46,946 bases of DNA from an uncultured Bacteroidales bacterium (GCA_964449015.1 CAYVBH010000002.1:1-46946), one strand, 5' to 3'. Counted from the stretch's first letter, positions 13,601 through 31,955 are shown. Made by a program: numbers and translations. Notes: generated by a model not told the origin, from the sequence alone.

Positions 13601-15188
13601 TACTGACCACTCTATGAATAATCCCACAAGCTGGAGCTGGAATTTCGGTGACGATAGCACAAGCACATCACAAAATCCTTCACATACATACACAAAAGCC
13701 GGAACCTACACGGTCATCCTTACAGTGACGAATAGTGCAGGTTCCGATACGGAAACAAAAACCGGTTATATAACGGTAAGCGTAGGTGTTGTTAAACCGG
13801 TAGCTGCCTTCACTGCCTCTCCGACAACCATTACTTCTGGCCAGAGTGTGCAGTTTACTGACCAATCCAAGAACAATCCAACAAGCTGGAGTTGGAGTTT
13901 TGGCGACGGGAGCACAAGCACATTACAAAATCCTTCACATACATACACTACACCAGGAACATATACAGTAAGCCTTACTTCTACCAACAGTGCCGGATCA
14001 GATACTAAAACGAAAACCAATTTCATTGCTTTAGTTGCTCCTCCGATAGCAGATTTCACAGTATCACAAACGAATATTAAAACAGGTCAGAGTGTACAGT
14101 TTACTGATCAATCCAAGAATAATCCCACAAGTTGGAGCTGGAATTTTGGCGACGGGGGTACAAGCACATCACAAAATCCTTCACATACATACACAGCATT
14201 AGGAACATATACAGTAAGCCTTACTTCCACCAACAGTGCCGGATCAGATACTGAAACGAAAACCAATTTCATTGTTGTTATAGCTCCTCCGGAAGCAGCT
14301 TTCACGGTATCACAAATGAATATTTCAGCAGGTCAGAGTATACAGTTTACTGACCAATCCAAGAATAATCCCACAAGCTGGAGCTGGAATTTTGGAGATG
14401 GAGTTACCAGTACTTTAAAAAGTCCCTCGCATATATATTCAGTGGCCGGAACATATACAGTAACATTAATAGCAACTAATAGTGCCGGATCAGACACTGA
14501 AACCAAAACGAAATATATAACTGTTAATCCGGAAACAACAGTTACAGATCGCGATGGTAATGTTTATAAAACAGTGAAAATCGGTAATCAGGTTTGGATG
14601 CAAGAGAATCTGAAAACAACCCATCTAAATGATGGAGTTGTGATTGAAAAAACTACTGAACAACGTGCATGGGATGATTTATCCTATAGCTCATATTGCT
14701 GGTACCGTAACGACGAAGCGGCTTACAAAAATATATACGGTGCGTTGTACAATTGGTATGCAGTGAATACTAATAGATTGTGTCCATCGGGTTGGCATGT
14801 ACCTACGGATGCTGAGTGGACAGTATTAGAAAATTTCCTCATTCAAAATGGTTATAATTATGATGGAACTACAACTGGAAACAAAATTGCGAAATCCTTG
14901 GCATCTGCCACTGGTTGGACTTCATCTACTGATCCCGGTACAGTTGGCAATAATGATTATCCTAATAAGAGAAATGCTTCTGGCTTTACAGGTCTTCCGG
15001 GAGGTTTACGGGTAGGAAGTGGAGATTCCGGTTTTGGCTATGTTGGTACTGAAGGAGAATGGTGGTCGTCTACGTCGTACTCAACAACAACTGCCTGGAA
15101 TCGAAGTCTATTCTACCTCAATAGCAAAGTTGGCAGATATTCTCCAAATAAGAAGAATGGATATTCTATTCGTTGTTTAAAAAATTAA
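12906..15188 (+). CDS. Lipoprotein paralog 2: one Fn3-like N-domain, five PKD repeats, and a canonical Fibrobacter-succinogenes-major-paralogous (FISUMP) C-terminal domain
   Basis: 760 aa with the same lipobox. The C-terminus 'VTDRDGNVYKTVKIGNQVWMQENL...YGALYNWYAV...CPSGWHVPTDAEW...SGFTGLPGG...WWSST...SIRCLKN' is the classic FISUMP pattern. Confidence 0.85.
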   Translation: MKPYLKPPLLELLAVYLLTSLVSCEKPTIPDVSTAQVTDITQTGAISGGNVKNNGGEEVTARGACWSIARNPTIGSSKTTDGTGNGNFVSKITGLSANTTYYVRAYAINSEGIGYGNEVSFETQKGPPEANFTASPTTITAGQSVQFTDQSTNNPTSWSWNFGDGSTGTSQNPSHTYTTVGTFTVILTVNNDAGSDTETKSSYITVNEAIVKPVADFTASPTTITEGQSVQFTDHSMNNPTSWSWNFGDDSTSTSQNPSHTYTKAGTYTVILTVTNSAGSDTETKTGYITVSVGVVKPVAAFTASPTTITSGQSVQFTDQSKNNPTSWSWSFGDGSTSTLQNPSHTYTTPGTYTVSLTSTNSAGSDTKTKTNFIALVAPPIADFTVSQTNIKTGQSVQFTDQSKNNPTSWSWNFGDGGTSTSQNPSHTYTALGTYTVSLTSTNSAGSDTETKTNFIVVIAPPEAAFTVSQMNISAGQSIQFTDQSKNNPTSWSWNFGDGVTSTLKSPSHIYSVAGTYTVTLIATNSAGSDTETKTKYITVNPETTVTDRDGNVYKTVKIGNQVWMQENLKTTHLNDGVVIEKTTEQRAWDDLSYSSYCWYRNDEAAYKNIYGALYNWYAVNTNRLCPSGWHVPTDAEWTVLENFLIQNGYNYDGTTTGNKIAKSLASATGWTSSTDPGTVGNNDYPNKRNASGFTGLPGGLRVGSGDSGFGYVGTEGEWWSSTSYSTTTAWNRSLFYLNSKVGRYSPNKKNGYSIRCLKN
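13275..14526 (+). repeat. Intragenic tandem array of 5 PKD-domain coding units, paralog 2
   Basis: Five FT(A/V)S..GQS(V/I)QFTD..WSW.FGD units. Confidence 0.85.
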
Positions 15189-15258
15189 AAAATAAATCTC
15201 AAACAAACAGGAACCTTTGAAAATGATAGTTATAAAAGTCTAAAGTATACTAACACTC

Positions 15259-17490
15259 ATGAAACCTTACCTAAAGATTCCCCTGTTGGAGTTACTTGCA
15301 GTCTATCTCCTAACATCCTTGGTTTCCTGTGAAAAACCGACAATACCTGATGTATCAACTGCACAAGTTACCGACATTACACAAACAGGTGCCATATCAG
15401 GAGGCAATGTAAAAAACAATGGAGGCGAGGAGGTTACTGCACGTGGTGCCTGCTGGAGCATTGCCAGAAATCCAACCATAGGCTCAAGTAAAACAACCGA
15501 TGGTACTGGCAATGGTATTTTTGTCAGTAAAATTACCGGCTTATCAGCAAATACTACCTACTATGTACGTGCCTATGCTATGAACAGTGAGGGTATCGGA
15601 TATGGAAATGAAGTAAGTTTTGAAACTCAAAAAGGTCCTCCAGAAGCAAACTTTACTGCTTCTCCAACAACCATTATTGCTGGCCAGAGTGTGCAGTTTA
15701 CTGACCAATCCACGAATAATCCCACAAGCTGGAGTTGGAATTTCGGTGACGAAAGCACAGGCACATCACAAAATCCCTCACATACATACACCACAGCAGG
15801 AACTTTTACGGTCAGCCTTACGGTAAACAACGATGCCGGATCGGACACGGAAACGAAATCAAGCTATATTACCGTAAATGAGGCTATTGTTAAACCGGTA
15901 GCTGACTTCACAGCCTCTCCGACAACCATTACAACTGGCCAGAGTGTGCAGTTTACTGACCAATCCACGAATAATCCCACAAGCTGGAGCTGGAATTTCG
16001 GTGACGGGGGCACAAGCACATCACAAAATCCTTCACATACATACACCATAGCAGGAACATTTACAGTAAGCCTTACGGTAAACAACGATGCCGGATCGGA
16101 CACGGAAACGAAATCAAACTATATTGCCATGGGTGGGCCTATTGCTAAACCGGTAGCTGCCTTCACAGCCTCTCCGACAACCATTACAGCTGGCCAGAGT
16201 GTGCAGTTTACTGACCAATCCAAGAACAATCCCACAAGCTGGAGCTGGAATTTTGGCGACGAAGGCACAAGCACATCACAAAATCCTTCACATACATACA
16301 CCACACCAGGAACATATACAGTAAGCCTTACTTCTACCAACAGTGCTGGATCAGACGCTGAAACGAAAACCAATTTCATTGTTGTTGTTGCTCCTCCGGA
16401 AGCAAACTTTACTGCTTCTCCGACAAGCATTACAGCTGGCCAGAGTGTGCAGTTTACTGACCAATCCAAGAACAATCCCACAAGCTGGAGCTGGAATTTT
16501 GGTGACGGGGGCACAAGCACATCACAAAATCCTTCACATACATACACAACATTAGGAACATATACAGTAAGCCTTACTTCCACCAACAGTGCCGGATCAG
16601 ATACTGAAACGAAAACCAATTTCATTGTTATTGGTGCTCCTCCGGTAACAGCTTTCACAGCCTCTCCGACAACTATTACTGCTGGCCAGAGTGTGCAGTT
16701 TACTGACCAATCCACGCATAATCCCACAAGCTGGAGCTGGAATTTTGGCGACGGTGGTACGAGCACATTAAGAAATCCTTCACATTTGTATTCAATAGCG
16801 GGATCTTATGCAGTTAGCCTTATGGTAACCAATAGTTTCGGATCAGATACTGAAATTAAATCTAATTATATTACTGTAGAAAAAATATGTCCAACTTCCA
16901 TAGTTGTAACCCACTTGACTGGATTAGTTGCGCCTGTGACCAAAACAGTAACATACGTAATAGCTGAAACAAACTTGTCTGGCGAAAATAAATGTTGGAT
17001 AACCAGTAATCTGGGTGCCGATAGACAGGCAAGTTCGGCTACTGATGCTAGTGAGGCGGCATCAGGCTGGTACTGGCAATTTAATCGGAAACAGGGCTAC
17101 AAACATGATGGGGCCACTCGCACACCAAATTCAGTCTGGATCACTCCTATAGATGAGAACAGTAATTGGACAATTGCCAACGACCCTTGCAATATTCTTC
17201 TTGGCACTGGTTGGCGTATCCCTACATATACGGAATGGAGTAATGTTGATAACAATGACAAATGGGAGGATTACAATGATACTTATGCATCAGTATTGAA
17301 GCTCCATGTTAACGGAGATTTAAACAATTCTGGTGAACTACATAGTAGAGGTTCTTATGGTTTCCGCTGGAGCAGTACACAATTCAGCAGCGTATACGGT
17401 TGGTACCTATCTTTCGCCAGTACTTACAGTGGTTTAGGCAACAATGGTTATAAGGCTTATGCACGCTCAATCCGCTGCATTAGAGACTGA
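15259..17490 (+). CDS. Lipoprotein paralog 3: one Fn3-like N-domain, five PKD repeats, and a C-terminal lectin-fold domain of the paralog-1 type
   Basis: 743 aa. The 5' third is close to paralog 2, PKD units 3-5 are essentially identical to paralog 1, and the C-terminal domain is a diverged copy of paralog 1's ('GWRIPTYTEW...RWSST...SIRCIRD'). Confidence 0.8.
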   Translation: MKPYLKIPLLELLAVYLLTSLVSCEKPTIPDVSTAQVTDITQTGAISGGNVKNNGGEEVTARGACWSIARNPTIGSSKTTDGTGNGIFVSKITGLSANTTYYVRAYAMNSEGIGYGNEVSFETQKGPPEANFTASPTTIIAGQSVQFTDQSTNNPTSWSWNFGDESTGTSQNPSHTYTTAGTFTVSLTVNNDAGSDTETKSSYITVNEAIVKPVADFTASPTTITTGQSVQFTDQSTNNPTSWSWNFGDGGTSTSQNPSHTYTIAGTFTVSLTVNNDAGSDTETKSNYIAMGGPIAKPVAAFTASPTTITAGQSVQFTDQSKNNPTSWSWNFGDEGTSTSQNPSHTYTTPGTYTVSLTSTNSAGSDAETKTNFIVVVAPPEANFTASPTSITAGQSVQFTDQSKNNPTSWSWNFGDGGTSTSQNPSHTYTTLGTYTVSLTSTNSAGSDTETKTNFIVIGAPPVTAFTASPTTITAGQSVQFTDQSTHNPTSWSWNFGDGGTSTLRNPSHLYSIAGSYAVSLMVTNSFGSDTEIKSNYITVEKICPTSIVVTHLTGLVAPVTKTVTYVIAETNLSGENKCWITSNLGADRQASSATDASEAASGWYWQFNRKQGYKHDGATRTPNSVWITPIDENSNWTIANDPCNILLGTGWRIPTYTEWSNVDNNDKWEDYNDTYASVLKLHVNGDLNNSGELHSRGSYGFRWSSTQFSSVYGWYLSFASTYSGLGNNGYKAYARSIRCIRD
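15628..16880 (+). repeat. Intragenic tandem array of 5 PKD-domain coding units, paralog 3
   Basis: Five PKD signatures in the translation. Confidence 0.85.
16200..16768 (+). repeat. 569-bp block almost identical to 11221-11789 (copy B)
   Basis: See copy A. The flanking sequence on both sides is much more diverged. Confidence 0.9.
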
Positions 17491-19041: not shown

Positions 19042-19980
19042 TCACTGCGTTCCATTGGCAATAACTTCCCTGTATTCTTTTCTCGTCAACCCTTCAAAAA
19101 TAAAGTAGGAAGGATTCAGCGGTTTTCCATTTTTCCTGACTTCGTAATGCAAGTGGGGTCCGGAGCTTAAGCCTGTATCACCGACACGACCAATGATATC
19201 ACCTTTTTGTACTAGTTTATTATCGTATACTTCCAATCGGACGAGGTGACCATAGAAGGTCTGGTATCCAAATTTATGTTCAATCAGGCATGGCCGACCA
19301 TAACCAGCGCTAATGTGTTCCTCAATCATTTTTACTTTCCCGTTGGCCGGAGCCACCACAATCGTGCCTACAGGTGCTTGAATATCAATCCCGGTGTGCA
19401 TCCTGGGCTCATTTAGAATAGGATGATCACGCATGCCAAATCCGGAAACTATCCGGGCATCTTTTTTTGCAATGGGATATGCAGCCGGGATGGACCTAAA
19501 AATCTTCTTCTTGTTCTCAATGGATTTTATTAAGTCATTTATGCTGCTCTCCAACAGCTTCTGCTGACGATCGGACCTCATTGTTGTGGAATCATAATCC
19601 TTTGAAGACACGGCTGTTGCTTCAAACTCATTCATGTTTTCTGCGTATTGCCTGGCATAGTTCTTATATTGGCTGACAAATTCGTGGATTCGATCTATTT
19701 CAGGTGACTCCGTGTATATTAATTCATCATAGAGTTCATCAAAGAGGCGAATTTCATTGGTTAAGTTGTTGATTCTCTGGATTGATGCATCTATTGCCTC
19801 AGTTTGTTCTTTGGGAGTATTTTTTACCTCACGTTCTATTGAATTGAAATCATTCGCTTCTGGTTTAAACTTATAGATTAGAATAAAAACTATCGCAAGA
19901 ATTACGATAAGTACGACAATCATAATAACCAGGTTACCGGATCTATTTTCGCCGTCAGATGAGTCCTTGTTTGGATTCAT
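19042..19980 (-). CDS. Membrane-anchored M23 family metallopeptidase
   Basis: 312 aa with an N-terminal TM segment (LVIMIVVLIVILAIVFILI), a coiled-coil-like linker, and M23 motifs 'HTGIDIQAPVGT', 'GDTGLSSGPHLHYEV'. The gap to the upstream co-oriented gene is only 32 nt. Confidence 0.9.
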   Translation of the reverse strand: MNPNKDSSDGENRSGNLVIMIVVLIVILAIVFILIYKFKPEANDFNSIEREVKNTPKEQTEAIDASIQRINNLTNEIRLFDELYDELIYTESPEIDRIHEFVSQYKNYARQYAENMNEFEATAVSSKDYDSTTMRSDRQQKLLESSINDLIKSIENKKKIFRSIPAAYPIAKKDARIVSGFGMRDHPILNEPRMHTGIDIQAPVGTIVVAPANGKVKMIEEHISAGYGRPCLIEHKFGYQTFYGHLVRLEVYDNKLVQKGDIIGRVGDTGLSSGPHLHYEVRKNGKPLNPSYFIFEGLTRKEYREVIANGTQ

Positions 19981-20012: not shown

Positions 20013-20672
20013 CTATTTTCTTTGCTGTTTATAGCCCTTATTTTCAACCAAACAAATCTTTAGTGAATCCCGACATTTTGTTAATTGGTATTGCAGCTTC
20101 TGAGCCTGGCTTTGAAATTTTTCAACATTTGAACTTAACAGATCAACTTGGGATTTCAATGTATTGTTCTCTTTCTCGAGATCACTTCTTCTATATAACT
20201 CCCGCTGTAAATCACCTGATCCGGTTACCACAACATTCTCCTTTGCCTGAAGTTGCTCTTCAAGCTTAAATTTATCAATATAAGCGGTTTTTAAAGCAAA
20301 ATAGGTTTCTACAATATTCTTGTACATTAAATATTGTTGATCTTCCTCATTAACCTTCCATGCTTTCTTAATATTTTCAAGTGATACGTTGATACTTGTT
20401 TCAACATCCCCCAGAATTAAGCCTTTTGCATTAAAGTTTGGTAAATCCTTTAATTTGCTTGTTGCTTCGTTAATATTGGGTTGAAAAAACTTCTGTTGGA
20501 ACATCAAATCATTCTTTAAATCATCAAGCTGTTTTCTTGATGCATAATCCATCATTTGATTTACATTCATTGTAGAAAAGCCCAATAACATAGCCAGAAC
20601 AAAGCTGAGTATAAATAAGCCAGTTACTTTATAAAAGGCTTTGGCCCTTTCTTTACTATTAATTGGTTTCAT
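20013..20672 (-). CDS. Single-pass membrane, coiled-coil protein; possible TssO-like T6SS(iii) membrane-complex component
   Basis: I chose the start at the internal Met (MKPINSK...) so the gene does not overlap the upstream one. It has one TM segment (VTGLFILSFVLAMLLGF) followed by a heptad-rich, Q/L/E/K-rich C-terminus. The assignment rests on position and architecture only. Confidence 0.35.
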   Translation of the reverse strand: MKPINSKERAKAFYKVTGLFILSFVLAMLLGFSTMNVNQMMDYASRKQLDDLKNDLMFQQKFFQPNINEATSKLKDLPNFNAKGLILGDVETSINVSLENIKKAWKVNEEDQQYLMYKNIVETYFALKTAYIDKFKLEEQLQAKENVVVTGSGDLQRELYRRSDLEKENNTLKSQVDLLSSNVEKFQSQAQKLQYQLTKCRDSLKICLVENKGYKQQRK

Positions 20673-20682
20673 TGAAGTTGGA

Positions 20683-21537
20683 TTAGTCGTTTTTACTAAT
20701 GCGTTGACAATAAAGCAGATCGTTCTCTCTAATTTCGCTGGCGTAAACAGAACTGTCAGGATCAATAGTTACTTTCAAACCAAGAAACCTGTTCTTTACT
20801 TTTCTAAAAATCCAACCACACGGTTCGTGATTTTCATTTAAATAGGAAATGGTTCCTTCGGGATGTCTGTCGTTGTAATCGTTGATAAAAAAATAAAACA
20901 AACGTCCCACTTTCATCCCGACAGGCGCCTTTGCTCTGAAAGTCGTTAATTTATAACTGCTTTCATTCTTTTCAAAAATAAAACTAATAATGATTGGATT
21001 TTCCAATTCTTCATCGGATGGATCGTCAATATTTTGACCAACAGGATAATACCATAGTTTATAAATCTTTGGAGGAACTTTAACTAATTCCTCAATTGTT
21101 TTATTAAGCAGTAAAGGAATCAGAAACCAGAGCAATGATATATACCATGTGAATGGAAGCTGGTGTTTCTGCAAGTCAGATAATGACAGGTTACTGAAAA
21201 AGAAAGCCAGAATAAGTATGCAAATGACAAAAAGCAATTGCATGTTAAATGGTTGTGCTTTGTACCAGGGCAATGTTGTTGGAATTAAAACAACATGCAA
21301 AACACCCATGAATAAAATAAATACCTGGGCACAAACCAGAACAAGTATTTGGCTGAGATTGAACTTAAACAGGTTAAATAAGGTAGGAAAAGCAAGTAAC
21401 AGAGAAATCAACAGAATATATATGACAGAAGCCAATCCGTATTTTTTCAACACTTTTATCCTTTTGAACAAGACCATCAGAATACCGCCCGAAAATACCA
21501 GACTGGCAACTTTCAATGCAATACTTGCGGAATTCAT
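20683..21537 (-). CDS. Polytopic membrane protein with soluble C-terminal domain; possible TssN-like T6SS(iii) component
   Basis: 284 aa with about five hydrophobic helices in the first ~150 aa and a ~130-aa soluble domain. The size and architecture fit what I recall of TssN, and the gene lies inside the T6SS locus. Confidence 0.45.
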   Translation of the reverse strand: MNSASIALKVASLVFSGGILMVLFKRIKVLKKYGLASVIYILLISLLLAFPTLFNLFKFNLSQILVLVCAQVFILFMGVLHVVLIPTTLPWYKAQPFNMQLLFVICILILAFFFSNLSLSDLQKHQLPFTWYISLLWFLIPLLLNKTIEELVKVPPKIYKLWYYPVGQNIDDPSDEELENPIIISFIFEKNESSYKLTTFRAKAPVGMKVGRLFYFFINDYNDRHPEGTISYLNENHEPCGWIFRKVKNRFLGLKVTIDPDSSVYASEIRENDLLYCQRISKND

Positions 21538-22955: not shown

Positions 22956-23435
22956 ATGGGTAAACCCGCTGCACGCGTTGGTGATATGCATGTTTGCCCG
23001 ATGGTAACACCGGGAGTTCCTCCCATACCGCATGTTGGGGGGCCGATCCTGCCTCCGGGATGTCCTACCGTTCTTATCGGTGGCATGCCTGCAGCGGGAA
23101 TGGGAGATATGTGCACTTGTGTTGGCCCGCCTGATGTCATTGTGTTAGGTTCAACTGGTGTTTTTATTGGTGGCAAGCCGGCAGCACGCATGGGGGATCA
23201 AACATCACATGGCGGAGCCATTACATTGGGATGTCCTACTGTATTGATCGGAGAAACAGGCAGTGGTGGTTCAGGCGGAGGGGCCGCAGGCGGAGCCGGG
23301 GGAGGTGCAGGTAACGGCACAGGAGGCGGAGCAGTATCTGCTTCGGAGCCACCTCAGGTGCAAACCTTTAAAGCTGCAGCAAAAGATGGAACTCCATTCT
23401 GTGCCGAATGTGAGGCAGCCAAAAATAAGAAATAA
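22956..23435 (+). CDS. PAAR-domain T6SS spike-tip protein with Gly-rich linker and short C-terminal CxxC tail
   Basis: 159 aa with three PAAR-type motifs (KPAARVGD, MPAAGMGD, KPAARMGD). A Gly-rich linker spans residues about 101-127. The tail ends '...AAKDGTPFCAECEAAKNKK'. Confidence 0.9.
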   Translation: MGKPAARVGDMHVCPMVTPGVPPIPHVGGPILPPGCPTVLIGGMPAAGMGDMCTCVGPPDVIVLGSTGVFIGGKPAARMGDQTSHGGAITLGCPTVLIGETGSGGSGGGAAGGAGGGAGNGTGGGAVSASEPPQVQTFKAAAKDGTPFCAECEAAKNKK

Positions 23436-23460
23436 AGTTCGTTTTTAATATTTTACTGTG

Positions 23461-24000
23461 ATGGCACTTAACACTGATCAGGTCTCTGTTGAAATTGCAA
23501 AGGATAAAACAGTCCCTGATTTCTTATGGAATCGGGCCGAGGACAAAACCTGCAATTTATACGCTATTGTTGATTCAGCACGAAATGATGAAGTATTTCA
23601 ATATTTCCTTAATGATAAAATCGAATATAAGTCTCTTTTTGAAGGAAAAGCGGATGTAAAATTTTTCAGTGTTTCTGGTTTTTTAGTAGAGTGCAAAAGA
23701 GATTCAACCTTGTTCAACTGGCTTACTACTGAAGCATGGGGTAGCAGCTGTTCCGTATTCTTTTTATCTAAAGCTTCATTTAGTGAAGTTTTAAAGCATT
23801 TGCAGAAGTTTATCCGTGTTTATCTGGAAGACGATGATATAGTCTATTTTAGATTTTATGATCCGAGAGTTTTGCGTGTATATCTACCAACCTGTAATAG
23901 TAAGGAGATCAGGACTTTTTTTGGAGAAATAGAAAGTTTTTTTGTGGAAGGTGAGGATCAGAAGGTTATGATTGAATTTCAAAAAGATTCAATTTCTTAA
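23461..24000 (+). CDS. DUF4123-family protein (T6SS effector adaptor/chaperone family, Tap-1/TEC-like)
   Basis: 'LYAIVDSARNDEVFQYF' and 'VYFRFYDPRVLRVYLPTC' match the two hallmark DUF4123 blocks. I prefer the ATG at 23461 over the GTG at 23458 used by the ORF track. Confidence 0.8.
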   Translation: MALNTDQVSVEIAKDKTVPDFLWNRAEDKTCNLYAIVDSARNDEVFQYFLNDKIEYKSLFEGKADVKFFSVSGFLVECKRDSTLFNWLTTEAWGSSCSVFFLSKASFSEVLKHLQKFIRVYLEDDDIVYFRFYDPRVLRVYLPTCNSKEIRTFFGEIESFFVEGEDQKVMIEFQKDSIS

Positions 24001-24309
24001 ATATATGGATTAAAGATTATTTTGCACAAATTAACCTAATATCTTATTTCAAATGCCAAGTCATCTCTAAAAGATAATATATTACGTAATATGATTTAAT
24101 TTATCTGGTAGAATTAGGATGTTATTAATATTTATATTAAAATAAAATAATTATCATCAGCATTTTATTAAAAATCTGAATCTTGATATTAATGAGGATA
24201 AAGTATTAATATTTTATTTGTTTGGCAAATAGCTAGGCAACTTGAAAAATATAGGGGAAAAATGCATGTATATATTTGGTCATAACTTAACATGTATTCA
24301 GATTCGAAT
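24001..24309. other. Extremely AT-rich convergent spacer between the PAAR/DUF4123 arm and the vgrG cargo arm
   Basis: One 60-nt line I counted contains only 7 G/C. I saw no credible ORF and no clear hairpin. Confidence 0.7.
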
Positions 24310-25740
24310 TCAAATAGACGCTATTATAGGACGCAATCCAAGATTCTTTTTTAAGTACCAGTGTATTTCACATAAATCAGGTACATGTGAATGTCCCATT
24401 ATAAACACTGAAAATTTAGGTTTTTTATCTTTTAACTCTGAATATAATAAATCAATTGCAATGAGTTTCTTATTTATTGTAGTTTGTGAATCACCAATGA
24501 AATTCATAATCCTTTGCCAAACTAATTCTAAAGACCTAAATTCTGGAACTAGATATGCCAAGTCAGCAATAAAAGCACCTTGCCAATTTCCATCTTTGTT
24601 AACGGCTTCAAGTCTATGACCATGTTCTGCAAAAATATTATCTTCATAAAAATAAGCCATGCGGGCTTTCCTAAACCCTAATGCTTCATCCCATTTATTA
24701 TCTTTACTCCTCATTATATCAAGTAGATACGCGTCATGATTACCATGCAAATAAGTGATAATACCAAATTTCTCTAAAACATTAAATCTGCTAATTATTG
24801 AGTAATTTTGAGCCTCAATTCCAGTAATCCGATCCATCAATTTAGTTACCGCATCGTCTTCAAGTATTAGGCCTTCTTTACTATCATCAAAAAAAGTACC
24901 AATAGCGCCTATATTTTGCCATAATTCGTATAAATCACCTATTTGAATTACTTTTACCTTATCAAAATATTTATTCTTTACAATAAAGGAAATGACAAGA
25001 TCTAAAAAGCAAACTAACGATTCTCCAGCATTCTTAAATATATCAGCTTCTATACTTTGAATATATTCTTGGTAACGAATATATTTTTGACTAGAAGGAA
25101 TACCCCTTGCAATATCTTTATTATGACTATCATACATTTGGTTAAGTTCAGTTTGAGTAATATCTTTAAATTCATCTCTATATCTAATTTTAGGTAAGTG
25201 CATGTCTGGAAGAAAAATATAGATAGAATTAGATTGCGGAGGATTTTCAATTATCTCAGCCCATTTAACTATCTCTATAGCTCCTCCAACTTTTTTAGTT
25301 ATTGGTTCTCCTTGATCGCTCCAATCAAAGTGAATATCACTGTAATGGCCAAAATGTGACCAAAACTCATGAAATATTGGATCTGTAATTGAAAAGATAT
25401 CCGATGGTACTATGGGTATATGTGCTTGTTTATAGTTAAACTTGCAAAGTAAAACACATTTCTTATAAACAATACCAAAGTATCTTTTATCACCAGCCCA
25501 AACGCCGACATCTAAATATATAAAATAATTCACGTTGGGACTTAAAGGTGTTTTGTCCGATCTATTTGATGCAATTCGTGATATACTTACTTCCTTTTCT
25601 TTTACCGTAAAATCAATTCTAGGAGTATATTCTTTTAACCAATCAGTAAATGTCAAACCCTCAATAGTATTATAATTTGGATTATATTCAAGCACGATAT
25701 TTTCAATCTTTGCGTTTTCCATGATCAGACTGTTTGACAT
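24310..25740 (-). CDS. Calcineurin-like metallophosphoesterase with a ~170-aa N-terminal domain of unknown function (candidate T6SS cargo)
   Basis: 476 aa. All five MPE motifs are present in order: 'LPDMHLP' (DxH), 'IGDLYELW' (GD), 'LHGNHDAYL' (GNHD), 'AEHGHRLE' (H), 'IMGHSHVP' (GHxH). It is the last gene of the vgrG-downstream array. Confidence 0.8.
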   Translation of the reverse strand: MSNSLIMENAKIENIVLEYNPNYNTIEGLTFTDWLKEYTPRIDFTVKEKEVSISRIASNRSDKTPLSPNVNYFIYLDVGVWAGDKRYFGIVYKKCVLLCKFNYKQAHIPIVPSDIFSITDPIFHEFWSHFGHYSDIHFDWSDQGEPITKKVGGAIEIVKWAEIIENPPQSNSIYIFLPDMHLPKIRYRDEFKDITQTELNQMYDSHNKDIARGIPSSQKYIRYQEYIQSIEADIFKNAGESLVCFLDLVISFIVKNKYFDKVKVIQIGDLYELWQNIGAIGTFFDDSKEGLILEDDAVTKLMDRITGIEAQNYSIISRFNVLEKFGIITYLHGNHDAYLLDIMRSKDNKWDEALGFRKARMAYFYEDNIFAEHGHRLEAVNKDGNWQGAFIADLAYLVPEFRSLELVWQRIMNFIGDSQTTINKKLIAIDLLYSELKDKKPKFSVFIMGHSHVPDLCEIHWYLKKNLGLRPIIASI

Positions 25741-25759
25741 TGGTATGTATTAAACTCCA

Positions 25760-26395
25760 TTATAATCCATGTACTTCTTTAAGTTTATCTTTTGTCTCTT
25801 TATTTATTTTTCCGGTAATCTCAAGATTATGATTTTTTTGAAACTTCTTAAGAGCTTCTCCCATTTTTGAATTAAATTGACCATTAATCATCCCGCAATC
25901 AAATCCAAGATTATTAAGTCGTTCCTGAATTCCAGAAATTGTTTCCAAAGGATCTAGATTTCCTATATTTAAAATATAAGTAATAAGATTAGTATCATCT
26001 TCAACAATTAGCTTAGCTTTTTTTATATTTGGTGGTATTGAGATATTTAATACTCCATTTGAGCTTAATTTTCCTTCAGTAATATTTCCACCAATTTCCA
26101 ACTTATATGATGCATTTTTCATCTCTTCATTATCATAACTAAAAATCTTTAAGCATAATTTAGCTGGTACTCCTTTCATTTTAAAACGATTGCGCTTGTC
26201 GAAAAAGGCAATTTCATTTTTCTGATCTTTTTCTGGTATAAACACTCTATCTCCTTCAAACAATATACTCGGATCCTTTCTTAATTCTTTTAATGAAGCG
26301 TTCTTTGTATGATCCCAAATCGTCTTCGGAAAGAATCCAAATTTGAATGCAATACTATTTATACAGTCACCCTGTTTTACAATGTATTCCAGCAT
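25760..26395 (-). CDS. LysM - beta-rich middle - PG_binding_1 three-part protein
   Basis: 211 aa. The N-terminal LysM is 'YIVKQGDCINSIAFKFGF...GDRVFIP'. The C-terminal 'GIQERLNNLGFDCGMINGQFNSKMGEALKKFQKNHNL' is a typical PG_binding_1 helix bundle. I recognise no catalytic motif. Confidence 0.8.
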   Translation of the reverse strand: MLEYIVKQGDCINSIAFKFGFFPKTIWDHTKNASLKELRKDPSILFEGDRVFIPEKDQKNEIAFFDKRNRFKMKGVPAKLCLKIFSYDNEEMKNASYKLEIGGNITEGKLSSNGVLNISIPPNIKKAKLIVEDDTNLITYILNIGNLDPLETISGIQERLNNLGFDCGMINGQFNSKMGEALKKFQKNHNLEITGKINKETKDKLKEVHGL

Positions 26396-26406
26396 ATTTA
26401 AAATCT

Positions 26407-26706
26407 TTATTCCATAAGTACCTCCCAGGCATCTTTATCCAATTTTGGAAAAGTTATTTGACAATTTCCAGCATCAATGCCATCAATCCTAATCAAACCT
26501 AAAGAATTAGTAAAGCCACTGACTTCAGCACCATCAGGTAAGGTAAGTAAATACTCAACTCCGACAATTCCTTTCCCATCCTCGCCCACCATCTCAATTT
26601 CAACGAAATGAAAATCACATGATTGTTTTGAACTACCGGTATTTGGACTACTGTTGTTTGCAGCATCTCCACTGCTTTTCAGGTTGCTATTGGATTTTAT
26701 GGCCAT
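26407..26706 (-). CDS. Small hypothetical protein (disordered N-terminus + beta-sandwich-like core)
   Basis: 99 aa. The core 'FVEIEMVGEDGKGIVGVEYLLTLPDGAEVSGFTNSLGLIRIDGIDAGNCQITFP' resembles small Big/carboxypeptidase-regulatory-like sandwiches. It is tightly packed, with gaps of 11-12 nt on both sides. Confidence 0.5.
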   Translation of the reverse strand: MAIKSNSNLKSSGDAANNSSPNTGSSKQSCDFHFVEIEMVGEDGKGIVGVEYLLTLPDGAEVSGFTNSLGLIRIDGIDAGNCQITFPKLDKDAWEVLME

Positions 26707-26718
26707 GTTTTAATTCAT

Positions 26719-27090
26719 TTACGATAACTTTTTGTTTTCATCAGAACGTTTTAGTACCTCTTGGTATAGTTTGCCAATCCTGATACTTGGATTAGGCTCT
26801 TTCTTATCCATTAATATCGCTAGCATCCATGCATTTTCAGGCTTTTTATCGAAATCCATTCCAAAAAATATCGATATGTTGAGAAATTTGCATATATCCC
26901 GTTCAGTAATTAATTCATATTCTCCAGCCCGTTGAATTATTTCCAGTATGTTTTTTCTTAATTGGCCATCATCCATTGCCTTGCTTTCTATTGGGAAATA
27001 CTTCCTGACATGAATCATCATGTTTTCAATAAATTGTTTCATTGCCAGTTCATCAAATACCTGGACTTGTTCTTTTCGGATCGTTAGCAT
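26719..27090 (-). CDS. Small hypothetical cytoplasmic protein (candidate immunity or accessory protein)
   Basis: 123 aa, predicted helical, with no signal peptide. It lies directly downstream of the 432-aa gene. Confidence 0.5.
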   Translation of the reverse strand: MLTIRKEQVQVFDELAMKQFIENMMIHVRKYFPIESKAMDDGQLRKNILEIIQRAGEYELITERDICKFLNISIFFGMDFDKKPENAWMLAILMDKKEPNPSIRIGKLYQEVLKRSDENKKLS

Positions 27091-27158
27091 GATTTATTTG
27101 ATATAAGCATTATACCTAATATCATAGTAATTATTACTTTCATTTTACAATTTTAGAT

Positions 27159-28457
27159 CTATTGATAATCGTTTATAAAATTATAATATATGTAAGTTTT
27201 GTTGGATAGCAGCTTATTGAAAGCATCATTTTTAGGAAATATAGGGCTTTCATCAGGCAAAAAATAAACTGGGATTTCACGTCTTATAGGTCTAGTTGCT
27301 TTACCGAAACAATTTTGTGCAAAAATTTCGACTATTTGAATATTTTCGGCCACTATTCTACCTGTTCCAGTGCTCTGTTCAATATTAACTATCAAAGAAA
27401 TGAATAATTCATTTCTATTTTTTTCTAGATTTAAATCCAAAGGATTATAATATTCTCCGAAACGCATCTGTTTTACTTGTTTTGTTTGTGGACCCGAAAT
27501 TTTCTTGGTGCGGGAAAAACCCTTTGTCCCTCTATCGAACATAGTAGGATCTGGTTTTGTTCCAAATAGATAATTATATTCTGCGGTGACCTTTTGGCGT
27601 AGAATATTTTCGCTACTAAAAATATCAATTTTAAGGATGCCCATAAAAACCTTAACAGTGGGAGCGCTTATTTTTTGGGCATTGAAAAATATACTATATA
27701 TCTCTAATAAGGATTCCGCATTACCGATATTGCAACCCCTTATGGCAATATTATTTAATTTTTTATTCTGGATATCTGAAATAAGCTTAATAAAATTACT
27801 CATCCATGTTTGAGAAGCTTTTGACTCAGGAGGTAACCCAAGCTTTTTTATTATATCTTCTTGATGTTTTAAAATTTTACCATTCCATTTTTTAGTCAAT
27901 TCATTGATCCTTTTCTCATTTGGTTTTTTTTTATATTCTTTTAATTCTCCATTGATTTCATCATTAAATTCCGATTGAGTATTATTGTATAATCCCAAAT
28001 CCTTTAATTCTTGCAATGTTGATTCAGCATTATCTGTATTATAATGTTTTGTTATTATGTTTAAAACATCTAGCCAATCATCAAGGTTTTTCGAAGATTT
28101 AATATTAGAATAAATTCTCTCTACCGCAGCATAACGTAAGATATAGAATAATCCCTCATAAGATTTGACATTTTTTTCCCCTTCTATAAAGGAGAAAGAG
28201 GTCATTCCTGCATCACTATTTCCATGTGAAAATATCAGAATATTTCGCTCTGAAATATTATTAATTCTTTGTAACAAATTGAAATAAGTTGGATGACTTA
28301 TAATTTCAGCGTGCCTAATGGAGATTTTGTGATCAGACCGGAATGTATCATAATATCTTTTTGCATAAGGACACCCCTTCGCTATGAAAGCATAGTAAAT
28401 TGGATAATTACTATTATCAGAAGAACTTTGTTTAGGGTTGACTTTTATTTTAGACAT
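27159..28457 (-). CDS. Hypothetical 432-aa protein with His-Gly ... Cys motif pair (candidate T6SS cargo)
   Basis: A long, uninterrupted, very AT-rich ORF. 'NILIFSHGNSDAG' and 'NNIAIRGCNIGNAESLL' each follow a hydrophobic strand. I recognise no other family motif. Confidence 0.6.
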   Translation of the reverse strand: MSKIKVNPKQSSSDNSNYPIYYAFIAKGCPYAKRYYDTFRSDHKISIRHAEIISHPTYFNLLQRINNISERNILIFSHGNSDAGMTSFSFIEGEKNVKSYEGLFYILRYAAVERIYSNIKSSKNLDDWLDVLNIITKHYNTDNAESTLQELKDLGLYNNTQSEFNDEINGELKEYKKKPNEKRINELTKKWNGKILKHQEDIIKKLGLPPESKASQTWMSNFIKLISDIQNKKLNNIAIRGCNIGNAESLLEIYSIFFNAQKISAPTVKVFMGILKIDIFSSENILRQKVTAEYNYLFGTKPDPTMFDRGTKGFSRTKKISGPQTKQVKQMRFGEYYNPLDLNLEKNRNELFISLIVNIEQSTGTGRIVAENIQIVEIFAQNCFGKATRPIRREIPVYFLPDESPIFPKNDAFNKLLSNKTYIYYNFINDYQ

Positions 28458-28483
28458 ATTATAAAAAAAAGAAAATTATCTAT

Positions 28484-29143
28484 TTAAGGCATGGTAAGTT
28501 TTTGTCCAGGAATAATCAAATCCGGGTGAAAATTCATACCGCTTGCCTTCCAGATGATGTCCCACAGGTTTGCATATCCATAATACTTGAGAGCAATTTT
28601 TGACAATGTATCGCCGCTAATTACGGTATAGGGCTTATTATATAAAAATGTAAACGGAGGAGCAAAACTGGCAGGCATATCTGCACCAACAACATCAATC
28701 ATTTTCCATGTTGCCATCCATCTGAAAAAATTCTGACTTAATGGATGTTTCCTGAACTCTTTTTCGGCATTTTCTGAAATGGTTATTGTCATTACCCGGG
28801 CTTTTTCAACCAACAGCGAAGCAAGCTGAAAAAGCTCAGTTTGGCTTTCAGTCACGGATGGAATGAGATCTGACTGTTTCACCAGTTTTAATAAATTGTC
28901 AATACTTTCTGTTGTGTATGGAGTATTGGTACTATTTAGCGCTTCCAGTATTTTTTGTCTCAGGTCTTCTTCAACGACTTCCAGGTATTTGTCTAATTGT
29001 TCATCATTAAGCGGAAGATGAGCAAATTGCATATGTCCATGACGGACAGGGAATTTCTTAAAAAGAGATTGCACTTTGTAGTCATCAAATCCGCTTAATA
29101 TAAATCTTTGACTTAATGTTATGGCATATGAAGTAAGTTGCAT
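28484..29143 (-). CDS. VgrG-adjacent protein with C-terminal LysM domain
   Basis: 219 aa with a helical N-terminal ~165 aa. The C-terminal LysM is 'YTVISGDTLSKIALKYYGYANLWDIIWKASGMNFHPDLIIPGQKL'. It lies 24 nt downstream of vgrG. Confidence 0.75.
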   Translation of the reverse strand: MQLTSYAITLSQRFILSGFDDYKVQSLFKKFPVRHGHMQFAHLPLNDEQLDKYLEVVEEDLRQKILEALNSTNTPYTTESIDNLLKLVKQSDLIPSVTESQTELFQLASLLVEKARVMTITISENAEKEFRKHPLSQNFFRWMATWKMIDVVGADMPASFAPPFTFLYNKPYTVISGDTLSKIALKYYGYANLWDIIWKASGMNFHPDLIIPGQKLTMP

Positions 29144-29167: not shown

Positions 29168-31012
29168 TTAGTTGATCATCACCATACTTCCTTTCACGGT
29201 CATCACGCCACTGGAAGAGACCTCTGCAGTGGCGCCTCCGGTGGCTTTTAAAGAAGCATTGGCTTTAATTTCAACCGATGTGGCTTTCGCTTCAAGGCTG
29301 GTTTGAGCTTCATTCTTAATATCCATGGCCTTTTGTTCTAAAGTGGTCTGAGCTTCGGATATAATTTCATTGGCTTTCTGCTCAAGTCCCTGCCCCGCTT
29401 CGATTCTTATACCATTTTGTGCTTTGATCTCAATATCCTTGGCTTCAATTGTCAGTTTTTCAGTAGCCTTGATTTTAATCTCCCCGCTTGCAGCATCGAG
29501 GGTTATTTCATTTTTATTGCTTGTATCATAAATCCTGATCTTTTCCTTGCCTGATTCATCATGCAATTCAATCGTCTGCCCGCTCACTGTGCGGATGGCA
29601 TGAATTTTGGCATCCTTGTCGTTGTAATCGCCCGTCCAGGCTGAATCGGGAGGATAGGTTTCATCGAAAAATGCACCGATGCAATAAGGCCTTTCCACAT
29701 CACTGCCTTCAAAAGCGACCATAACCCTAGTGTTTACCGACAGGACAAAATAAATACCCGAATTTTCCCTTGTATAAGGGGTAACCACATTGATCCATGG
29801 AGTCATCAAACTGTCGCTCTCCATCCAGGGGAAATGAATCCGTACCCTGCCCAGCTTTTTTGGATCCTGGTTGTCTGCAATTGTCCCGACCTGGTTAGGA
29901 GAGAGCTTTATAAAATATGGATTCGTATTCTCAGGAATTTTTATTTTCTCCGGAACAGCATTAAAAGTATTATTATAAGAAAGCAGGTTATCGAAACTAT
30001 GCTGAATTGAAGTAATCAAATAATTCCCATAATCAATTTGAGGATCTGAAGGTTTCTGATTAGGGTAAAAAACCTTGATATATGTTCCGGCTGTCATAAA
30101 AGGATTTATCGAAGAACCAGACAAGTCTGAAAGGTTTGATGCATCACTTTCTTCGTCATGTTCTCCTGCTTTGTCGATCGCTTTTTGATAATCATTTTCA
30201 TTCACATTCAGCGATTTATAATAATGTATCCCTTCAAACTGGAAAAAGTCTTTTGATTTGTCAAGAGCAAATTTCCCATAATCGTTTAAAGTGCCGTCCG
30301 CTTTACCTGTACCTGATTTAAACTTATAGATGTCGGTTTTTAAGGGATCCATCGACATAAGGCTGAATTTTACAGGGCTTACCCTTAGTTGATAATTGAG
30401 ATCTTTAAGGTCATACCCGATTGTCAGTTTTTGTTCTTTCCTGGGTTCAGGCAATTCCCCGAAGATCATCTTGTCCCCGTTGAAAAAAAACCATTCTCCA
30501 TACCTGATGGAGAGCCGTTTCAGAAATTCCAGGTCACTTTCCTCATATTGTACGATATAAGGATAGCGAAATTTGTCACGCGGTTTAACAACGGCTTTGA
30601 ATGGATAAGGTCTAAAAACCTCTTTTACAATTTCCTCAAGGGTTTTATCCATAAACACTCTGTTTGTAGGTTTACCTGTAAGGGAGATTTCTACAGAGCC
30701 TCCGGTAATCAATATTTTGTCACTGTCTTCCATGCCACTCCTTGATCCTTGTATCTCTGTCACATATCCTTTCATAAGCACAACATCCTTCTCATCCTCC
30801 TTGACCTGAACTTTGGTTTGAATGATAATTGGCGAACCCAGAAAATTTTTCGCTTTATTTATCAGAAATTCATCAAGTTTTTCTATTGCATCATACCGGC
30901 AAGTAATTTCAAAACTGTCAATACCATAAATATTATCATTGATGGAAACAGATTCAAAATCTTTCAGCGGTTTCCCATCAATTTCTATGTCAATTTTTAA
31001 AATGGTTCCCAT
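29168..31012 (-). CDS. vgrG: Type VI secretion spike protein VgrG (TssI)
   Basis: 614 aa with a gpD-like N-terminus and a gp5 OB-fold-like middle (GTIADNQDPKKLGRVRIHFPWM). The C-terminal beta-helix repeats read IKIKATEKLTIEAKDIEIKAQNGIRIEAGQ... It is preceded by hcp. Confidence 0.9.
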   Translation of the reverse strand: MGTILKIDIEIDGKPLKDFESVSINDNIYGIDSFEITCRYDAIEKLDEFLINKAKNFLGSPIIIQTKVQVKEDEKDVVLMKGYVTEIQGSRSGMEDSDKILITGGSVEISLTGKPTNRVFMDKTLEEIVKEVFRPYPFKAVVKPRDKFRYPYIVQYEESDLEFLKRLSIRYGEWFFFNGDKMIFGELPEPRKEQKLTIGYDLKDLNYQLRVSPVKFSLMSMDPLKTDIYKFKSGTGKADGTLNDYGKFALDKSKDFFQFEGIHYYKSLNVNENDYQKAIDKAGEHDEESDASNLSDLSGSSINPFMTAGTYIKVFYPNQKPSDPQIDYGNYLITSIQHSFDNLLSYNNTFNAVPEKIKIPENTNPYFIKLSPNQVGTIADNQDPKKLGRVRIHFPWMESDSLMTPWINVVTPYTRENSGIYFVLSVNTRVMVAFEGSDVERPYCIGAFFDETYPPDSAWTGDYNDKDAKIHAIRTVSGQTIELHDESGKEKIRIYDTSNKNEITLDAASGEIKIKATEKLTIEAKDIEIKAQNGIRIEAGQGLEQKANEIISEAQTTLEQKAMDIKNEAQTSLEAKATSVEIKANASLKATGGATAEVSSSGVMTVKGSMVMIN

Positions 31013-31027: not shown

Positions 31028-31435
31028 TTACTCTCCTGATGGTGCCCAAAGGCTTTCGTGTCTGACACCTGTCACTTTTATAATCCGGGGGGAAATAGTC
31101 AGGCTAATCATGATATCTGACTGATCAGAAAAACTTTCATGGTAACTGACCAAAACTGCATCCTCGAATTCCAATGATTTATGAGGGCCGGTATCAACAA
31201 CACCGGAAAAGGTTATTTTGCCATCTTTTCTAACATCACGCCCCAGCATCCATTCGAGAATTTCAGTATCATTGATTCCCGGAATTGTAATATTAATCAA
31301 ACCTGCCCTGACTTTCGAAGCTACCATACCGCGATTATCCACATCTTGTGAAAAGCTGAAATCACAGGAGAGTATTTTAATCCCCTTTTCTTGCTGGCTG
31401 TGTCCTTCAATATGCAACCTTGCAGTTAATGACAT
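31028..31435 (-). CDS. hcp: Type VI secretion tube protein Hcp (TssD), copy adjacent to vgrG
   Basis: 135 aa. 'ILSCDFSFSQDVDNRGMVASKVRAGLINITIP...ILEWML...KDGKITF' fits the Bacteroidota TssD pattern. Confidence 0.8.
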   Translation of the reverse strand: MSLTARLHIEGHSQQEKGIKILSCDFSFSQDVDNRGMVASKVRAGLINITIPGINDTEILEWMLGRDVRKDGKITFSGVVDTGPHKSLEFEDAVLVSYHESFSDQSDIMISLTISPRIIKVTGVRHESLWAPSGE

Positions 31436-31565
31436 ATAAATATTATTGATTGTTTAAAAGCTTATTTAGGTGTGGTCTTTCTTCTTTGAAGGCCTAAACA
31501 GAATATACTTCAAAAAAGGAATCCCTATTTAAAAGCTGTTACGAATTAAAGCGACCTAATAAGCT

Positions 31566-31955
31566 TTACACAGGCCACTCATTTAACATTTCTCCATCGC
31601 CCAGCTTAATGGATTTCGCTGAAAGGGAAATGGACTCGGTCATGGCAGTTGATCCTATACTGTCAAATGATTCCTGGTAGCCAACCATGTAAGCTTCCTT
31701 GATTTCAAGCTCTTTCAATTTGGAGTTCTCCTCACGTTTGTTAAATACGAGGCTGGCATCTTTTTTCATATAGCTGTCGCACATCCATTCAAACAGTTTG
31801 CTGCTATCTGATGATTCCACCACTATATTGATCACTCCTCCCCGGGCAACCGATGAGGGTCTTCCGGTAACATCATAATCCTGGTGCATGCTGTAGTTGC
31901 AGGAAAGAACATTGTAGTCTTTCCCATCGACTTTGAAAATTGCTTTAAATGACAT
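31566..31955 (-). CDS. hcp: Type VI secretion tube protein Hcp (TssD), second divergent copy
   Basis: 129 aa. 'YNVLSCNYSMHQDYDVTGRPSSVARGGVINIVVES...LFEWMC' shows the same pattern, at roughly 30% identity to the other copy by eye. Confidence 0.8.
   Translation of the reverse strand: MSFKAIFKVDGKDYNVLSCNYSMHQDYDVTGRPSSVARGGVINIVVESSDSSKLFEWMCDSYMKKDASLVFNKREENSKLKELEIKEAYMVGYQESFDSIGSTAMTESISLSAKSIKLGDGEMLNEWPV

Follow-up and report, generated by a model that had tools for sequence, protein, structure and literature searches.

What do six tightly packed genes that directly follow vgrG contribute to a type VI secretion system (T6SS)? The question is raised by a 46,946-nucleotide stretch of DNA from an uncultured Bacteroidales bacterium (GCA_964449015.1 CAYVBH010000002.1:1-46946; hereafter the window), in which the genes designated g1 to g6 occupy positions 24310-29143, all on the minus strand, between vgrG and a convergent PAAR-DUF4123 gene pair. 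The gaps between the open reading frames (ORFs), counted from vgrG onward, are 24, 26, 68, 12, 11, and 19 nt, and the coordinates, sizes, and 11-68 nt spacing of the six genes after hcp-vgrG are as given in the original prediction, an earlier reading of the same DNA that treated them as one cassette and as the best candidate for an undescribed T6SS cargo system. It seems reasonably likely that the region is a cargo slot of a subtype iii system (T6SSiii) with two effector units, each made of a peptidoglycan binder and an enzyme and loaded on the spike, and the enzymes encoded by g2 and g6 are probably new injected effectors. This reading draws on gene content, domains, catalytic motifs, recurrence beside spike genes, domain fusions, and the pattern of divergence; from these, spike loading, secretion, periplasmic action, substrates, and toxicity can be inferred.

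The gene farthest from vgrG, g6 (24310-25740, minus strand), encodes effector candidate 2, a 476-residue protein in which a conserved N-terminal domain (residues ~1-165) precedes what appears to be a divergent calcineurin-like metallophosphoesterase core. The calcineurin-like metallophosphoesterases (PF00149) include LpxH, GpdQ, PlcP, CpdA, and lambda phosphatase. All five motifs of this superfamily, as originally predicted, are present in g6 (PDMH179-181, GD268-269, GNHD333-336, EHGH372-375, and GHSH449-452) and in all of its relatives, and the signatures D-x-H, G-D, G-N-H-D, H-G-H, and G-H-x-H were invariant in 7 and then in 10 aligned family members. Several relatives also match curated models: four of the seven members of alignment A2 match PF00149 Metallophos (best E 2.9e-5), two of the seven match PF12850, and further relatives match weakly. 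Unlike curated metallophosphoesterases, the g6 protein of the window reaches no Pfam or NCBIfam model, and it carries the extra 165-residue N-terminal domain and long insertions and stands in a T6SS spike context. Its AlphaFold2 model (pLDDT 69, pTM 0.75) is of low confidence around motif IV, and a Foldseek search of the PDB with this mediocre model returned nothing with E <0.2, PP1 (6g0j) being fourth at E 0.5. Searches of PDB sequences with the g6 sequence and the g6 profile found nothing relevant. The family has fewer than 25 known members. In the literature searched on T6SS with metallophosphoesterase or calcineurin-like proteins, or on DUF4123 with phosphoesterase, there was no characterised example and one prediction in Neisseria, where a survey had already listed metallophosphatase-domain proteins downstream of vgrG as candidate effectors (PMC12046857).

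Directly upstream of g6 lies g5 (25760-26395, minus strand), whose 211-residue product has a LysM-like N-terminus, a beta-rich middle region, and a C-terminal PG_binding_1 domain. The latter is well above its cut-off (PF01471, residues 156-205; 47.9 bits against a threshold of 23, E 1.5e-12), whereas the N-terminal LysM falls below threshold (14 bits against 20.9, E 0.049; LYK4/5 LysM3, 18.1 against 29.3). Within the g5 family, conservation is highest in this LysM-like stretch, where a LysM-like fold is possible. Of the three peptidoglycan-binding modules that had been proposed for the cassette, the PG_binding_1 of g5 and the LysM of g1 therefore pass curated thresholds and the LysM of g5 does not. 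Compared with the PDB, the g5 profile matches SleB, CtpB, and other peptidoglycan-binding domains, as well as 4nso, labelled 'effector protein'. The association of g5 with g6 is recurrent: g5 stands directly upstream of a g6 homolog in L004-L007, L011, L012, L092, L099, L102, L103, L104, and L108 and downstream of it in L106, and in L105 the two are fused in one 700-aa protein with PG_binding_1. In this light, the g5 product is a putative partner subunit of g6 that binds peptidoglycan.

Scanning metagenomes with the g6 alignment yielded 16 loci, whose ORFs were scored with profiles of g1 to g6, with spike proteins, and then with Pfam; L107 and L109-L111, short generic phosphoesterases with weak matches in phage-like regions, were left out of the g6 family. 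The first g6 homologs to be found were those beside g5 homologs on the short contigs L004-L007. Elsewhere, g6 homologs adjoin VgrG, PAAR, or DUF4123 genes (L001, L096, L099, L101, L103, L104, L105, and L108), and DUF4123 genes flank the g6 module in L096, L099, L101, L103, and L104. A VgrG of the subtype i (T6SSi) type is followed by g4-g5-g6 and then FHA-DUF4123 in L104, and by g6 and DUF4123 in L096; the order is DUF4123-g3-g4-g5-g6 in L103 and PAAR, then g5-g6-DUF4123, in L099. Fusions are found as well, with a PAAR::g4 fusion preceding g5-g6 in L108 and a VgrG with a g4-like C-terminus preceding the g5::g6 fusion in L105, while L001 comprises VgrG, a PAAR protein with two g4-like domains, three ORFs, g6, and a DcrB/DUF1795-like gene. 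Judged by these gene orders, g3-g4-g5-g6 is a separate recurrent module, tied to spike and adaptor genes in both T6SSi and T6SSiii and occurring also without g1 and g2. The original view of a single six-gene unit does not hold, since this module recurs without the first two genes and g1 is kept with other cargo.

Several neighbours of g6 homologs may be recorded here. The gene after the g6 homolog in L104 (4930-5913) is an FHA::DUF4123 fusion, and the one after the g5::g6 fusion in L105 (7290-8777) encodes a protein kinase::FGE-sulfatase-like protein. A DcrB/DUF1795-like gene without a signal peptide comes just after the g6 homolog in L001 (8370-8918) and L003 (4659-4997), and L096 has a weaker DcrB/DUF1795 match (13647-14075) at a distance of ~2 kb and on the other strand. 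DcrB/DUF1795 is the family of Eag-type T6SS effector chaperones, and the DcrB/DUF1795-like protein could be a chaperone or equally an immunity candidate for that branch of g6.

The remaining two genes of the module are small. Gene g4 (26407-26706, minus strand; 99 aa) encodes a disordered, Ser/Asn-rich N-terminus followed by a prealbumin/transthyretin (TTR)-like beta-sandwich. The beta-sandwich had been suspected from the sequence, and a profile built from nine copies of g4 matches the prealbumin-like SdrD B domain (E 7.6e-7) and CNA-B (E 1.2e-5), together with a weak match to the VgrG2b C-terminal domain 6h56 (0.075); Pfam matches to SpaA and CarboxypepD_reg were weak and sub-threshold. With g4-type domains fused to PAAR in L001 and L108 and to VgrG in L105, g4 is best read as a free-standing version of a spike-attached TTR-like adaptor domain, for which docking on the spike is predicted. 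Gene g3 (26719-27090, minus strand; 123 aa) encodes a small cytoplasmic protein that goes with cargo modules as a conserved accessory; it has no Pfam match, and its profile found nothing relevant among PDB sequences. A role as the immunity gene of g2 was considered and dropped as the leading idea. Its identity stays at 64-66% (L011, L012, and L002) while that of g2 falls to 30%; a g3-like gene (29% identity, 121 aa) stands among unrelated upstream genes in the different cassette of L009; and a g3 homolog (E 5e-33) accompanies the metallophosphoesterase module alone in L103, without g2. A chaperone or adaptor role is more likely than specific immunity.

The first of the proposed units begins with g1 (28484-29143, minus strand; 219 aa), which comprises an N-terminal domain (residues ~1-165) without a match and a C-terminal LysM (residues 172-219). 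The latter, which the original prediction had recognised, exceeds the Pfam gathering threshold (PF01476, 32.4 bits against 20.9, E 9e-8), and its best PDB match is the LysM of Kbp/YgaU. No Pfam or PDB sequence match was obtained for the N-terminal domain, and the g1 profile reaches the PDB through LysM alone, with weak matches of this kind to 9g8s (a tail tube initiator) and 9gtp and a match to 4b8v (Ecp6). There are 19 close homologs of g1 (57-67% identity), and the gene directly follows that of VgrG in L009, L011, L012, and L092-94, being retained in L009 despite different downstream cargo. A scan of 185,579 GTDB species representatives by two LysM peptide patterns recovered full-length g1 in one, all other matches being to the LysM domain only. 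By this distribution, g1 is a conserved, lineage-restricted VgrG partner and not a general T6SSiii part, and it may serve whichever gene comes next as a peptidoglycan-binding adaptor or co-effector. The g1 LysM motif (NLWDIIW / GDTLSKIAL) also turns up in short proteins from many phyla (L013-L091), again in a C-terminal LysM, with carriers among Gemmatimonadota, Anaerolineales, Myxococcota, Bdellovibrio, Dyadobacter, and Streptomyces.

Effector candidate 1 is g2 (27159-28457, minus strand; 432 aa), a putative Cys/His enzyme of an uncharacterised family. No match was found in Pfam, NCBIfam, PHROGs, or PADLOC, and a PDB sequence search gave nothing relevant. Among 5.8 billion proteins there was one homolog besides the window's own protein, and 27 members were retrieved when 1.84 billion cluster representatives were searched in full with HMMER. 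In an alignment of 17 family members (17-58% identical to g2), Y36, L61, H78, R240, G241, C242, G273, and G385 show no variation and D42 is nearly invariant, which bears out the His-Gly...Cys motif pair noted originally. In the AlphaFold2 model (pLDDT 86.5, pTM 0.85), a long helical insert splits an alpha/beta domain in which H78 and C242 each terminate a strand, and a beta-rich C-terminal domain comes after it. On this basis, g2 is probably a Cys/His enzyme, perhaps of an Asp-His-Cys type (probably Asp42-His78-Cys242), with a fold not assigned to any known class. Foldseek of the model found no significant neighbour in the PDB or BFVD (best PDB match E 0.06, TM 0.13), and weak NTF2-like matches to the C-terminal part were not significant. 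The protein carries a clan CD-type pattern, His-Gly and Ala/Gly-Cys each after a hydrophobic strand (ILIFSH78G and IAIRGC242). A clan CD (caspase/gingipain-like) peptidase assignment was nonetheless dropped despite the fitting motifs because Foldseek of the confident model found no such fold: no caspase, gingipain, legumain, or CPD was among the top 50 PDB matches listed. The g2 family has no Pfam model, solved relative, or structural neighbour.

Relatives of g2 also occur in injection-system contexts. P0030 is the g2 of the L092-94 cassette, and the distant member P0044 (L095 10001-11227) lies between clpV and vgrG of a canonical T6SSi cluster; a PAAR-Gln_amidase effector, accompanied by an Imm35 immunity gene, is encoded in that cluster as well. 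The whole g2 domain is fused to an N-terminal eCIS_core/DUF4157 in P0042 and P0047, to PG_binding_1 in P0051, and to a beta-lactamase-like domain (Beta-lactamase2) in P0052. The PG_binding_1::g2 fusion parallels the gene pair of g1 (LysM) and g2 just as the g5::g6 fusion parallels g5 and g6. In other lineages, T6SSi included, the neighbourhood survey thus repeatedly places relatives of g2 and of g3-g6 next to VgrG, PAAR, and DUF4123. The g2 ortholog of L012 (10662-11905) is split into two ORFs by a frameshift, which represents either a pseudogene or an assembly error of the metagenome-assembled genome.

The same T6SSiii framework is present in several uncultured Bacteroidales assemblies, and the comparison separates what is fixed in the locus from what is replaceable. 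The same six genes in the same order, ending at the convergent DUF4123-PAAR pair, are found in L011, L012 (with the short relative L002), and L092-L094. Identity to the window in the syntenic loci is 49-92% for core genes, 57-62% for g1, 64-66% for g3, 73-83% for g4, and 41-54% for g5; g2 is 59% identical in L012 and 30% in L011, and g6, by BLAST or alignment, is 23-27% identical, as against 36-39% between the window g6 and P0004-P0007. Of these last, P0007 belongs to a different VgrG/PAAR locus (L001) and P0004-P0006 are on short contigs. The guanine-cytosine (GC) content of g2, g5, and g6 is 29-31% versus 40-42% in core T6SS genes. L011 shows many ORF breaks across all genes, probably through long-read error. 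In L009/L010, the framework and g1 are kept and are followed by genes for proteins of 226 aa, a g3-like protein, and proteins of 327 and 214 aa (L009 10785-13650), all without a Pfam match; the 214-aa protein has a hydrophobic N-terminus and is immunity-like, so that the 327-aa and 214-aa genes look like an ordinary effector-immunity pair. Since these loci keep the framework and g1 and differ downstream, g1 appears to be conserved and VgrG-linked and the genes after it exchangeable. L009/L010 lack g2, g4, g5, and g6, and the cassette is accordingly not a set of structural genes present in every T6SSiii locus. The single full-length g1 recovered by the two LysM patterns among the GTDB species representatives and the very small g2 and g6 families likewise argue that the cassette genes are not universal structural T6SSiii or housekeeping genes.

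Under the favoured reading, the parts would work together as follows. Unit 1 would consist of g1, the conserved partner of this lineage's VgrG, and then the g2 Cys/His enzyme; unit 2 would be the g3-g4-g5-g6 module. The g4 protein, fused to PAAR or VgrG in other bacteria, would dock on the spike non-covalently, and g5 (LysM-like plus PG_binding_1) and g6 (a binuclear metallophosphoesterase) would form a two-subunit effector, with g3 and the convergent DUF4123 protein acting as cytoplasmic chaperones or adaptors. In g1-g6, there is no hydrophobic N-terminus or transmembrane-like segment (maximum 19-residue hydropathy <1.4), in line with the original statement that signal peptides are lacking; g1 and g5 would therefore meet peptidoglycan only after T6SS firing, when the binders would keep the enzymes in the periplasm of the target cell. 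There, an envelope molecule may be the target of g6, which would cleave a phosphoester or pyrophosphate bond in it, and g2 may be a cysteine-dependent hydrolase or transferase, possibly acting on the cell wall; both substrates are guesses. Searches of Pfam, NCBIfam, PHROGs, and PADLOC matched none of g1-g6 to curated toxin, defence, or phage families beyond LysM and PG_binding_1, in keeping with the original statement that no known effector family was recognised.

The cassette is flanked by T6SS genes. The VgrG spike (29168-31012, minus strand; 614 aa), identified by Phage_GPD, Phage_base_V, and VgrG NCBIfam models, has no C-terminal effector or TTR extension. Beyond it on the minus strand come two Bacteroidota-type Hcp (TssD) genes (31028-31955, minus strand; 135 and 129 aa; PF17642 TssD, E 1.5e-32 and 1.6e-44), followed by TssC, TssB, and ClpV. 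On the opposite side of the cassette lie genes for a PKD-domain protein, TssN, TssO, and an M23 peptidase, with TssE on the divergent arm. By gene content, the locus is a Bacteroidota-type subtype iii T6SS. The PAAR spike-tip protein (22956-23435, plus strand; 159 aa; PAAR_motif, E 1.6e-25) is encoded convergently to the cassette, a position kept in L009, L011, L012, and L092, and is followed by the DUF4123 adaptor/chaperone gene (23458-24000, plus strand; 180 aa; DUF4123 E 3.6e-26, Tla1 chaperone model 1.9e-9). The stops of the DUF4123 gene and g6 face each other across a spacer of 309 nt (24001-24309; 22% GC). A promoter/terminator scan gave counts not above those in shuffled sequence.

A few further features of the locus deserve mention. 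The window PAAR gene has 55% GC, versus 34-38% in its neighbours, and its product ends in a Gly-rich C-terminal tail and then a Cys-containing end, FCAECEAAKNKK. The listed TssO ORF (20013-20765, minus strand) has a TTG start and an 83-nt overlap with TssN (20683-21537, minus strand); the true start is probably an internal Met (MKPINSK...) since both the orthologous proteins and the match to Pfam TssO start only at about residue 32-35. After TssO, the M23 peptidase gene (19042-19980, minus strand), with an N-terminal transmembrane anchor, closes the T6SSiii locus, a position kept in L009, L011, and L012. TagX is an endopeptidase, and by analogy with it the M23 peptidase may be a wall-remodelling enzyme of this T6SS. 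Farther along, 10238-17490 (plus strand) holds three tandem paralogues of 841, 760, and 743 aa with five PKD repeats each and with distinct C-terminal domains, Lcl_C in the first paralogue and Fib_succ_major in the second; genes of a similar kind with PKD and Fib_succ_major flank the orthologous T6SS loci L009 and L092.

Systems of this kind are already known: VgrG/PAAR cargo that is encoded in a variable region of the locus and comes with TTR and DUF4123 adaptors. Such cargo, with TTR and DUF4123 (Tap/Tec) adaptors, is represented by EAEC (enteroaggregative Escherichia coli) VgrG1-TTR/Tle1, Pseudomonas aeruginosa VgrG2b, and Vibrio cholerae Tap-1/TseL. The window resembles these systems in that the genes come right after vgrG, the g4-type domain sits on PAAR or VgrG in relatives, DUF4123 and PAAR are nearby, and the cargo varies between orthologous loci. 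It differs in that the TTR is a free-standing 99-aa protein and DUF4123 is convergent rather than between vgrG and the effector, and also in its binder plus enzyme pairs, in having no immunity gene, and in enzyme families that are uncharacterised as T6SS toxins. Peptidoglycan-targeting effectors offer a second comparison. Vibrio cholerae VgrG-3 combines PG_binding_1 with a muramidase, and in the window, as in VgrG-3 and 4nso, PG_binding_1 is tied to a putative T6SS enzyme. Unlike in the VgrG-3 type, however, the partner is a metallophosphoesterase and not a glycoside hydrolase or amidase, binder and enzyme are separate polypeptides (fused only in L105), and there is no periplasmic immunity protein.

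Within the same T6SS subtype, the V1 region of Bacteroides fragilis GA3 T6SSiii loci encodes the effectors Bte1, Bfe1, and a 'LysM' effector; GA3 effectors have been shown or modelled to load via Hcp2-Hcp3 heterohexamers, and Bfe1, BteO, and the LysM effector have predicted transmembrane regions (PMC13035841). These V1 effectors share with the window the T6SS subtype, variable cargo regions, and a precedent for a secreted LysM-bearing protein, although the LysM effector was compared by description only. They differ from the cassette, which follows vgrG, has no transmembrane segments, and comes with TTR, PAAR, and DUF4123 parts; these three features together imply loading on the spike. A last comparison is with toxins of extracellular contractile injection systems (eCIS), in which DUF4157 is N-terminal and the toxin C-terminal (Geller et al., 2021; PMC8213781). 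The g2 of the window differs from these in that it has no DUF4157 and stands in a T6SSiii locus, and the toxin domains that have been named do not include that of g2.

How well does the favoured reading hold? In its favour, the catalytic residues of the g2 and g6 families are invariant despite identities of 17-40%, and divergence is mosaic, with low identity in g2 and g6, high identity in g3 and g4, and low GC in g2, g5, and g6. Weighing against it, and constituting its main weakness, no cognate immunity gene is identifiable in any examined locus, which is atypical of antibacterial T6SS effectors. No further ORF follows g6, the 309-nt spacer holds no conserved one, the 51-aa ORF of L092 is not conserved either, and all-against-all clustering of neighbours revealed no recurrent family beyond g3-g5 and the spike and adaptor genes. 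The g3 gene does not co-vary with g2 and occurs without it, and the T6SSi homolog of g2 in L095 has clpV and vgrG as its only neighbours, with no immunity-like gene adjoining. Further difficulties concern the enzymes themselves: no structural neighbour in the PDB or BFVD gives g2 an enzymatic class, and membership of g6 among the metallophosphoesterases rests on motifs and homologs, its own Pfam score being nil and its pLDDT 69 model lacking a significant fold match. Finally, the six-gene block is kept in three cassette lineages of the clade (the window; L012/L002; L011 and L092-94), which would also fit a lineage-specific accessory role. The earlier notion of a T6SS cargo system is partly supported, by the recurrence beside spike genes and the replaceable slot, with the qualifications that g4 is read as an adaptor rather than cargo, that g1 is a conserved VgrG partner, and that no immunity gene was identified.

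A bolder version of the favoured reading would dispense with dedicated immunity proteins altogether, and it is put forward only tentatively, as a joint proposal less likely to be right than wrong. Here, g5/g6 would be a new enzymatic class, a peptidoglycan-tethered binuclear metallophosphoesterase delivered by a free-standing TTR, and g2 a new Cys/His toxin fold common to T6SSi, T6SSiii, and eCIS. Targets of g6 might then be lipid II/undecaprenyl pyrophosphate intermediates, phosphates of phospholipid or lipopolysaccharide, or teichoic-acid linkages, and producers might be protected otherwise, for example if the proteins were inactive until bound to peptidoglycan.

Two other explanations are kept alive because no immunity gene was found. 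The first, which is rather improbable, is that the six genes are lineage-specific accessories of the machine, either decorating the spike so that it holds or pierces peptidoglycan, comparable to the cell-wall-degrading domain of phage T4 gp5, or remodelling the producer's own wall; g2 and g6 would then be maturation or penetration enzymes that need no immunity. Besides the missing immunity gene and the block kept in three cassette lineages, this would suit the rate at which g1 evolves, which is that of core genes (57-67%), the position of the T6SSi homolog of g2 among core genes between clpV and vgrG, and the structural role of LysM proteins in baseplates of phages and contractile injection systems (9g8s and 9gtp, weak LysM-only matches). 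The same T6SS in L009/L010 lacks g2, g4, g5, and g6, however, which are therefore dispensable for the machine, and the extreme divergence of g2 and g6, like their low GC, agrees with exchangeable cargo, as does the fusion of g2 to the toxin-marker domain DUF4157. A wall-remodelling role, moreover, is already fitted by the membrane-anchored M23 peptidase of the locus. The T6SS peptidoglycan binders TagL, TagN, TagP, and TagW are predicted to be of the OmpA type, and TagL and TagP reside in the inner membrane (PMC13584744); by contrast, g1 and g5 lack any signal peptide, export signal, or transmembrane segment and carry LysM and PG_binding_1 domains.

The second explanation, slightly less probable still, is that the effectors have targets outside Gram-negative kin (Gram-positive bacteria, fungi, or protists, for example), so that no self-immunity would be needed and the binders would serve another purpose, for example to grip a Gram-positive wall or chitin-like glycans. 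The cassette shares its lack of immunity genes with many eCIS toxins (PMC8213781). LysM also binds chitin, and one PDB match of g1, 4b8v (Ecp6), is a fungal chitin-binding LysM effector; metallophosphoesterases, as general enzymology has it, include sphingomyelinase-like and phospholipase-C-like enzymes. PG_binding_1, on the other hand, is specific for bacterial murein. Relatives of g2 are fused to PG_binding_1 and to a beta-lactamase/penicillin-binding-protein-like domain, which points to the bacterial wall, and no eukaryote-directed domain is present. As for an unrelated island of defence or cell-wall housekeeping genes inserted by chance, the low GC relative to the flanks would agree with it, yet it is nearly refuted by the linkage to VgrG, PAAR, and DUF4123 in many independent loci, the covalent fusion of g4 to PAAR and VgrG, the 11-68 nt gaps that carry on the vgrG operon, and the lack of any PADLOC or PHROG family beyond generic LysM and peptidoglycan-binding domains.

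T6SS effectors decide bacterial competition, and their activities have repeatedly exposed vulnerable targets in the envelope. With this cassette come two enzyme families that are uncharacterised and have clear catalytic signatures. In different phyla, gene order and domain fusions link both of them to spike, adaptor, and eCIS parts, and within the literature searched, metallophosphoesterase activity has not yet been demonstrated for a T6SS toxin. The binder plus enzyme plan, the free-standing TTR, and the absence of an immunity gene are testable departures from the effector-immunity model. If the favoured reading is true, the cassette would provide new toxin chemistry and a cargo module that crosses secretion systems; if its genes are accessory parts instead, they would show how the Bacteroidota spike handles peptidoglycan.

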